DNA of 7,566 bases from a virus. Lineage: Duplodnaviria; Heunggongvirae; Uroviricota; Caudoviricetes. Of this stretch, positions 4,121-4,564 are shown one piece after another. The DNA lies in the IMG/VR virus record IMGVR_UViG_2698536559_000017. One strand, written 5' to 3'. Within the stretch, counting starts at the first letter, position 1. Each line of letters starts with the position of its first letter. Under the pieces are notes generated by a model. That model saw only the letters and a list, made by a program, of their open reading frames with translations, was not told the origin of the DNA and did not search any database. The translations under genes and the position numbers were made by a program.

Positions 4121-4564
4121 ATGACAGCACAAATATCAGCTTACGGGCGGCTGGTGGCTGACCCACAGTTAAAGACCACCAGCAAGGGGACACAAATGGC
4201 GATGGCAAGTATGGCGGTTCCCCTTCCATGCAGCCAGGCAGATGACGGAACGGCGACGATGTGGTTATCCGTCCTGGCGTTTGGCAGACAGGCCGACGCG
4301 CTGGCAAAGCACCACAAAGGCGAACTCCTGAGCGTGGCGGGTAACATGCAGGTAAGCCAGTGGACAGGTCAGAACGGCGAAACGCGGCAGGGCTGGCAGG
4401 TCATCGCAGACAGCGTAATCAGTGCCCGAACTGTGCGACCGGGCGGCAAAAAAGGCCAGCGGGGGCAGGCTACTGATGCACTGAACAGAGCGAAACAGTA
4501 TGCGGGTCATGGCGTACCTGATGACAATAACGCCGGTGATTTTGATGATGACCTGCCCTTTTAA
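4121..4564 (+). CDS. ssb: single-stranded DNA-binding protein (divergent phage/plasmid-type SSB)
   Basis: 147 aa with GAGGGGG upstream of the ATG. The OB-fold-like N-terminal region (YGRLVADPQL ... WLSVLAFGRQAD ... SQWTGQNGETRQGWQVIADSV) parallels E. coli SSB segments. It has a Gly/Gln-rich linker and the hallmark acidic tail DFDDDLPF at the C-terminus (compare DDDIPF in SSB). Confidence 0.85.
   Translation: MTAQISAYGRLVADPQLKTTSKGTQMAMASMAVPLPCSQADDGTATMWLSVLAFGRQADALAKHHKGELLSVAGNMQVSQWTGQNGETRQGWQVIADSVISARTVRPGGKKGQRGQATDALNRAKQYAGHGVPDDNNAGDFDDDLPF

Follow-up and report, generated by a model that had tools for sequence, protein, structure and literature searches.

A single-stranded DNA-binding protein gene beside the iteron origin in the putative replication module of a Gram-negative PICI

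[quoted passage not shown] The same question is raised by an ssb gene found in 7,566 nucleotides of viral DNA (Caudoviricetes; IMG/VR record IMGVR_UViG_2698536559_000017), the whole of which is referred to below as the window. A preliminary description of this DNA, made from the letters and their open reading frames, had assigned the gene to a cargo region of a mobile element and had likened it to genes of establishment or anti-defence regions, while also allowing that it might support the element's own replication. The protein already carries an SSB annotation, its family is common, and a place for it among the replication genes of PICIs has been published; the value of the present analysis lies in a corrected context for the gene, which is a replication module and not cargo or anti-defence.

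The ssb gene and its product

The gene, its ribosome-binding region and the parts of its product are located as follows.

4121..4564, + strand: ssb gene, with an ATG start and encoding 147 aa plus the stop codon
4110..4116, + strand: Shine-Dalgarno-like GAGGGGG, 4 nt 5' of the ssb ATG, read from the sequence
4121..4429, + strand: OB-fold core (aa 1-103), predicted to bind ssDNA on the basis of profiles, alignment and AlphaFold2/Foldseek
4430..4534, + strand: short basic linker (aa 104-138, 35 aa; pI ~10)
4538..4561, + strand: C-terminal tip DFDDDLPF, SSB-Ct-like, a rare allele

The TGA codon of the upstream gene (4109-4111) directly precedes the Shine-Dalgarno-like site. The protein starts with MTAQI, an N-terminus that is invariant across the family alignment, and ends in NNAGDFDDDLPF before the stop codon, with GDFDDDLPF as the last residues. 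A divergent SSB with an OB-fold-like core had been proposed for this gene, with a PF00436 search as the check and the lack of an OB fold or of any SSB profile match as the refuting outcome. In a Pfam profile search, PF00436 matched residues 4-99 with 57.6 bits (cut-off 26; E 1.4e-15), and the NCBIfam profile TIGR00621 (ssb) matched with 59.5 bits (cut-off 53.95) in an end-to-end alignment that included the tail and the last residue. In addition, a match at E 3e-38 was obtained with phrog_44 ('single strand DNA binding protein'), and an identical protein is present in RefSeq under the name 'single-stranded DNA-binding protein' (WP_062863893.1). A phmmer search of the PDB gave 26 matches, 25 of them to SSBs, including those of Thermus (2cwa, 1.3e-10) and E. 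coli (EcSSB; 1eqq, 4e-5). The weakest of the 26 was a match to a catalase (E 0.004).

The AlphaFold2 model, a monomer built on 30 family members, consists of a core with a pLDDT of ~85 (residues 1-101) and a disordered C-terminal third. Within the core, strands, a helix at residues 55-62 and further strands follow each other in the order of the SSB OB fold, and when the model was compared with the PDB by Foldseek, the best 50 matches listed were all bacterial SSBs (target-normalised TM at most 0.81). Both the SSB assignment and the OB-fold-like core of the preliminary description were thus borne out, and so was the divergence from the host chromosomal ssb, the window SSB being 23% identical to that of K-12 (b4059; gene from NC_000913).

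EcSSB stacks on ssDNA through four aromatic residues, W40, W54, F60 and W88. We found that W48, F54 and W81 of the window SSB align with W54, F60 and W88, respectively, and are invariant in the 30-sequence family alignment, whereas the position of W40 is taken by Q39, W40 not being conserved because the L23 loop of the window SSB is shorter. His55, a tetramer-interface residue of EcSSB, aligns with Leu49. The two proteins also resemble each other in having a disordered C-terminal part with an acidic Pro-Phe tip; however, EcSSB (PDB 1eqq, 1eyg) is longer, with 178 aa, and its linker has 56 aa and a Gly, Pro and Gln fraction of 0.64, compared with 0.31 in the basic 35-aa linker of the window SSB. 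This linker is mostly disordered by prediction (pLDDT <50), apart from a low-confidence helix at residues 116-128, and holds the stretch RPGGKKGQ(Q/R)GQATDALNRAKQ, which is conserved in the family. It also contains a mosaic breakpoint at ~4497-4506 with respect to most E. coli relatives. Unlike EcSSB, the window SSB is encoded by a mobile island and is dispensable for the cell.

All 31 ssb genes from related loci were intact, and dN/dS values estimated by the Nei-Gojobori method had a median of 0.16 over 289 pairs for the SSB core and were ~0.24 for the C-terminal part. At the level of sequence, 4121-4564 is confirmed as a genuine SSB gene that is under purifying selection. No close relative of the SSB was found in the INPHARED phage collection, in which the matches listed shared at most 36% identity, suggesting that the gene is not a recent acquisition from a phage.

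The replicase, the origin and the island

The remainder of the window contains the following features.

58-378, - strand: YlcI/YnfO gene, from a profile search
1082-1381: DUF4222 gene, from a profile search
1363..3195, + strand: replication initiator/helicase gene (610 aa, 'DNA primase family') with domains D5_N, DUF5906 and Pox_D5
3194..3430, no strand assigned: iteron origin of the P4 crr/ori type, in which two iteron sets flank an AT-rich spacer at ~3304-3336
3585..3808, + strand: small phrog_1231 gene, present as a degenerate copy with a frameshift
3815..4111, + strand: gene for a hypothetical protein of 98 aa (phrog_27268), immediately 5' of ssb
4621..5145, + strand: ProQ/FinO-domain gene, from profile searches
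5142..5414, + strand: regulator gene of the PerC family, as is typical of E. coli PICIs
5453..5477, + strand: hairpin of 10 pairs with a T run after it, resembling an intrinsic terminator

The window replicase is 51% identical to residues 320-771 of P4 alpha, which form the helicase and origin-binding part of that protein, and, along its entire length, 48% identical to the Rep protein of EcCICFT073, the model Gram-negative PICI, from E. coli CFT073. No Zn-ribbon/Toprim primase domain was detected in it, and its first 160 residues matched nothing in Pfam or the PDB at E-values of up to 10, whereas the N-terminal 300 residues of P4 alpha, used as a control, gave Zn_Ribbon_Prim and Toprim_3. In the region 3210-3430, TGTTCACC occurs eight times without mismatch, with both orientations represented, alongside degenerate copies, and the whole window contains 11 copies compared with 0.34 expected by chance. 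On the annotated P4 genome, TGTTCACC is the 'ori type 1 repeat' and marks both ori and crr, the latter located directly 3' of the alpha gene just as the iterons of the window immediately follow the replicase gene. An AT-rich region between two iteron sets is also the layout of Gram-negative PICI origins (PMC6092414). A full-text literature search for the octamer TGTTCACC returned primer noise only. A scan of the window against Rfam gave two far-sub-threshold matches to plant miRNA precursors on the inverted repeat of the origin, which were judged spurious.

Despite sharing with the P4 replicon an alpha-like replicase, the TGTTCACC iteron and an iteron cluster directly past the replicase gene, the window differs in several respects. 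P4 has no SSB, and the window replicase is without the Zn-ribbon/Toprim part of alpha. When all P4 proteins were compared by tblastn with five related elements, int, alpha and orf88 found matches, a cI-like match was present in a single element (L007), and sid, delta, psu and epsilon had no match in any of the five. Membership of the P4-like satellites was rejected on the absence of sid, delta and psu.

To the right of the origin, a 95-bp tandem duplication (3512-3703) is found within the degenerate phrog_1231 gene copy; in related islands, this gene is intact and overlaps the start codon of ssb. The hairpin at 5453-5477 is the first terminator-like site on the + strand 3' of the origin and therefore probably ends the ssb transcription unit. 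As no such site is present on that strand between the origin and the hairpin, co-transcription of ssb with the ProQ/FinO gene and perC is suggested.

The ssb family is present in 1804 of 5426 complete E. coli genomes (about a third), with up to six copies per genome, and the copies were annotated as SSB in all matches listed. A species scan using one genome per species gave 39 loci, nearly all in Enterobacterales, of which 34 were non-redundant with a full-length SSB. A replicase gene was located within 1.5 kb upstream of ssb on the same strand in 32 of these 34 loci, the replicases being of the Zn-ribbon/Toprim/DUF927 type in 24, P4-alpha-like in five and with DUF927 only in three. In nearly all 32 loci, an octamer specific to the lineage was repeated 3-12 times in the gap between replicase and ssb, for example TGTTCACC, ACGGGTTA, GAACCAAC, GAGACAAC, ATCCCTAC and GGTAGACA. 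The genes 3' of ssb, however, were variable: ProQ/FinO genes were found in seven loci and PerC genes in 12, with capsid or P22-type ejection protein genes elsewhere. Since the order is constant up to ssb while the downstream genes vary, replicase, origin and ssb may be regarded as a conserved unit, with the variable genes starting past ssb. The term cargo region is therefore inappropriate, ssb being the first conserved gene past the replicase and iteron origin in 32 of these 34 loci and also in EcCICFT073. In most relatives, the replicase next to the SSB is of the Zn-ribbon/Toprim type; as the SSB also accompanies replicases that have primase domains, its presence is not generally linked to a missing primase.

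The closest known system is EcCICFT073, whose SSB (WP_000126698.1; NC_004431, 1384538-1384948) is 64% identical to that of the window and whose genes follow the same order, namely DUF4222, Rep, iteron origin, a small overlapping gene, SSB and PerC. The EcCICFT073 SSB has only 136 aa, lacks some of the linker and ends in DDPYGDDIPF instead of GDFDDDLPF, and the iterons are TGTCTACC/TATCTACC instead of TGTTCACC. The two also differ in the variable genes: EcCICFT073 has the capsid genes c1499 and c1500 past PerC, whereas the window carries the ProQ/FinO gene and two paralogous genes of no given function. Helper-phage induction and transfer have been shown for relatives such as EcCICFT073, for which a functional rep-ori replicon was also demonstrated experimentally (PMC6092414).

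Islands of ~15 kb with this arrangement were found at different chromosomal sites of complete E. coli genomes; a gene for a tyrosine integrase and one for an AlpA-type regulator come first in them. One of these islands, L002, is 100% identical to window positions 3512-7566; it is ~15 kb long, is flanked by rcnR and thiM and carries a TerS-like gene (phrog_57, E 1.8e-13). L002 and another island, L001, both contain the tyrosine integrase gene and the AlpA-type regulator/excisionase, an HTH gene matching P4 orf88 and phrog_2790, which lie outside the window, and capsid or TerS genes are carried by L049 and EcCICFT073. Gram-negative PICIs are described as having int, alpA, pri/rep, a two-set iteron origin and often a PerC allele (PMC6092414). 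A size of ~10-15 kb, the lack of a complete set of phage structural or lysis genes, and a packaging-hijack gene such as TerS or a capsid gene are further marks of these islands. The islands studied here agree with this picture, also in having a replicase followed by a two-set iteron origin around an AT-rich region. Judged by this gene content, the element that hosts the ssb gene is a Gram-negative PICI.

The leading regions of conjugative plasmids also encode SSBs, together with psiB and anti-restriction genes, and these SSBs act on incoming single-stranded DNA. Like them (the Ssb of the F plasmid, for example), the window SSB is a mobile-element protein that keeps a host-type acidic tail, and some relatives in its family are found on small enterobacterial plasmids, which are non-conjugative or phage-like replicons. 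A role in protecting incoming DNA or blunting host responses immediately after transfer, as proposed for the leading-region ssb genes, might be suspected on these grounds; we consider it very unlikely. The window ssb adjoins an origin in a phage-transduced island equipped with integrase, AlpA, Rep, ori and TerS, and neither relaxase, T4SS, psiB nor ardA genes were found near ssb in the window and in the flanks of related elements. Furthermore, 2344 of the 2346 E. coli copies of the family are chromosomal, and PADLOC gave no match when run on the SSB and on seven of the window proteins around it. Since PICIs arrive in cells as double-stranded DNA from phage capsids (PMC6092414), a plasmid-style establishment role does not fit. 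The likeness to establishment or anti-defence regions drawn in the preliminary description thus found no counterpart in the neighbourhood of the gene.

Some defence systems are triggered by phage SSBs, according to published reports, and the Salmonella islands contain a second, tail-less SSB paralogue, which hints at functional diversification. The SSB could on this basis be a trigger or decoy for defences that sense phage SSBs or ssDNA-protein complexes, thereby shaping the range of phages able to grow. Such an immune-related function seems highly improbable, however, as no defence-family match was obtained among the SSB and the same seven neighbours, the locus has nothing that resembles a sensor-effector pair, and the linkage to replication already accounts for the position of ssb.

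Conservation and variation of the C-terminal tip

The acidic tail of the window SSB had been called canonical. This holds for the window allele, whose tip DFDDDLPF shares seven of eight residues with the DFDDDIPF of EcSSB, and does not hold for the family. The last 95 nt of the window ssb gene, which encode the exact tip, were found in only two of the 5426 complete E. coli genomes, most E. coli family matches ending at about nt 377-386 of the gene, and in a set of the 120 closest database clusters the tip was DPYGDNIPF in 44, DPYGDGIPF in 16, DPYEDEIPF in eight and exactly DFDDD[IL]PF in three. In other genera, RPPFDDE[AD]PF is the commonest tip. The exact host-like tip of the window SSB is therefore a rare allele and not a family trait. 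Gene conversion from the host ssb was considered as a source of this tip and rejected: the tip codons of the window and host genes differ at synonymous sites (21/30 nt), indicating that the tip is not a recent copy of the end of host ssb, and the 95-nt tail has no other match in E. coli.

A more general property of the tip is better conserved. An exhaustive search of 1.84 billion representatives gave 336 SSB relatives at E <= 1e-10, and among the best 150 of these 336, a terminal Phe was present in 64 of the 107 full-length proteins (~60%). Two or more of the last eight residues are acidic in most of these 64, and Pro-Phe is the ending of 40, with DFDDELPF and PFDDDLPF as examples. The terminal Phe is the best-kept position of the tip, and it is this residue of the SSB tip that occupies the binding pocket in chi, exonuclease I, RecO, RecQ and DnaG (PMC3632105). 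The wide occurrence of Phe-ending tips among the full-length relatives suggests that an acidic, aromatic Phe-ending tip is an old and conserved property of the clade. In most E. coli alleles, partner binding may be weaker or different, the tip DPYGDNIPF being less acidic.

Among the related loci, we observed no co-variation between the type of tip and the type of replicase. For example, RPPFDD..PF tips occur beside replicases of the alpha-like and of the Toprim-DUF927 type alike, and alpha-like replicases that are nearly identical come with either DFDDDLPF or DPYGDNIPF. A tip specific for its cognate replicase is thus unlikely. The variation raises the question of whether different tips change the set of host replisome and repair proteins that are engaged, which may matter most for replicases that, like that of the window, have no recognisable primase domain. 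A further reading, speculative and in our estimation rather improbable, is that the PICI SSB tip is a tunable adaptor, in which a constant core would be combined with diversifying tips that choose which host or helper SSB-interacting proteins are recruited to the DNA of the satellite or withheld from that of the helper. Were this so, DnaG and Pol III, for instance, might be recruited to a replicase without a primase domain of its own, and the tip alleles would be part of an arms race between satellite, helper and host. The diversity to which such a reading refers may be exemplified by DFDDDLPF, DPYGDNIPF, DPYEDEIPF and RPPFDDEAPF, to which the tail-less paralogue of the Salmonella islands may be added.

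Proposed role in island replication

The ssb gene lies just past the initiator and origin of a phage-parasitising island, and its family occurs in roughly a third of complete E. coli genomes; it is, for these reasons, an ordinary accessory of replication and not an unusual piece of cargo. Its product is probably the dedicated SSB of a Gram-negative PICI replication module, so that of the functions suggested in the preliminary description, support of the element's own replication is the one favoured by the context of replicase, origin and ssb. This agrees with the classification of PICI genes annotated as 'Primase, SSB and DUF5906', which colocalise with mapped origins and were categorised as Replication (PMC10111431).

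From the gene arrangement, the following course of events may be proposed. Induction by a helper phage would lead to expression of the rightward genes of the island; the P4-alpha-like initiator/helicase would then bind the TGTTCACC iterons 3' of its own gene and open the AT-rich spacer, and SSB produced from the origin-adjoining gene would coat the strands exposed at the origin and forks through its OB-fold core. The flexible acidic Pro-Phe tip might dock host SSB-interacting proteins on the island DNA. Since no primase domain can be recognised in the window replicase, recruitment of DnaG may matter in this case. At the primase-to-polymerase switch, DnaG competes with the chi subunit of Pol III for the same SSB tip (PMC3632105), and a host-compatible tip would thus suit a primase-less replicase. 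The extra SSB may also help when simultaneous replication of island and helper phage leaves too little host SSB. Counting against the proposed role, the linker of the window SSB is short and not rich in Gly, Pro and Gln, and the glycine-rich region is described as crucial for the stimulation of PriA (PMC9087215). Leu49 in the place of the tetramer-interface residue His55, the less acidic tip of most E. coli alleles and the pairing of the SSB with replicases that do have primase domains count against it as well. In E. coli DH5alpha, the replicase gene and ori of EcCICFT073 alone supported plasmid replication (PMC6092414); as these two suffice and the host SSB can serve, the island SSB is probably not essential. 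Our literature search found no experiments on any PICI SSB.

The sufficiency of replicase and ori, together with the lack of a stated need for ssb, is also what would be expected if the island SSB competed with the host or helper SSB and thereby slowed helper replication or damped RecA/SOS signalling, whether by sequestering SSB-interacting proteins through its tail or by forming mixed or poisoned complexes on ssDNA. PICIs are known to hinder helper phages (PMC6092414), the tail has been kept although the core is only 23% identical to host SSB, tips diversify among alleles with near-identical replicases as if their targets varied, and ssb is apparently co-transcribed with the regulators ProQ/FinO and PerC. 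We nevertheless consider such interference unlikely. The position next to the origin is kept across three replicase types, which points to a cis-linked role in replication; the aromatic residues contacting ssDNA are invariant and the gene shows purifying selection, neither of which a pure decoy would need; and the known Gram-negative PICI interference mechanism that we found targets packaging and not replication (PMC6739421). Nor would interference account for the good conservation of the DNA-contact residues and of the position beside the origin.

An OB-fold ssDNA-binding protein carried within the replication module of a mobile element is also known from phages, with the SSBs of PHROG 44, and from mobile elements of Bacillota, in which polymerase-SSB primase pairs have been described (PMC10061031). 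Unlike the Bacillota pairs, the window ssb has no A-family polymerase as a partner.

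Replicase and the adjacent iteron cluster

1363-3195, replicase gene, annotated as 'DNA primase family protein'
3194-3430, dense iteron cluster immediately 3' of the replicase stop codon

We found that the match between the 1363-3195 product and P4 alpha, the replication protein of satellite phage P4, is confined to alpha residues 320-771, the helicase and origin-binding part, and that the first ~160 residues of the product gave no match to primase, Toprim or Zn-ribbon models. Because this N-terminal domain nonetheless shows good conservation in the Rep protein of EcCICFT073, the model phage-inducible chromosomal island of E. 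coli CFT073, the label 'primase' may be misleading. The iterons form two sets flanking an AT-rich spacer, with eight exact copies of TGTTCACC, in both orientations, accompanied by degenerate ones. Since TGTTCACC is the type 1 repeat of P4 ori/crr, this cluster very probably represents the replication origin of the island.

The small gene upstream of ssb and the SSB linker

3512-3703, 95-bp tandem duplication (two copies, 98% identical)
3585-3808, frameshifted copy of the small phrog_1231 gene, containing the duplication
7312-7566, intact paralogue with the motif GEGYANAHPELISAFMTTAA, continuing past the right end of the window

In related islands, EcCICFT073 among them, the intact small gene overlaps the start codon of ssb, an arrangement suggesting that the two genes are translationally coupled. 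Within the SSB itself, the linker at residues 104-130 (4430-4510) contains the stretch RPGGKKGQQGQATDAL(N/R)RA(K/Q)Q, which is conserved in many genera, and a helix was predicted, with low confidence, at residues 116-128. The linkers of canonical SSBs are not known to have such a motif, and this stretch could therefore serve as a second interaction site.

Mosaicism and the genes downstream of ssb

~3512 and ~4497-4506, mosaic breakpoints
4621-5414, ProQ/FinO-domain gene (RNA-chaperone-like) followed by a PerC-family regulator gene, 3' of ssb
5453-5477, + strand, strong terminator-like hairpin
5796-6656 and 6653-7315, two adjacent paralogous genes, the stop codon of the first overlapping the start codon of the second

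Over its right part (3512-7566), the window matches one E. coli genome at 100% identity, and its left part resembles another, commoner island type (~96%). The similarity of most relatives ends within the linker-coding region of ssb, and the tail allele therefore moves together with the downstream module. On the + strand, no terminator-like site was found from ssb through the ProQ/FinO and PerC genes until the hairpin at 5453-5477; among 34 related species loci, ssb is followed by a ProQ/FinO gene in 7 and by a PerC gene in 12. The products of the two paralogous genes share 31% identity across 98 residues (E 3e-13), neither having a significant match in Pfam, NCBIfam, PHROG or PADLOC.

Variants in related islands

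L003 13117-13461, also in L004-L006 (Salmonella enterica islands), second SSB-like gene, 114 aa
L007 10797-15959 (Pluralibacter gergoviae), P22-type ejection protein genes and a DUF2824 gene, 3' of ssb

The second SSB-like gene of Salmonella lies ~3 kb downstream of the first ssb, and its product matches the window SSB with 47% identity across the OB core. An acidic tail is absent from this product, and Arg replaces W81. The L007 ejection proteins (P22_gp7, Inj_translocase and SLT/P22_gp16), together with DUF2824, are encoded by a gene set that is unusual in a satellite and may be considered candidates for hijacking.
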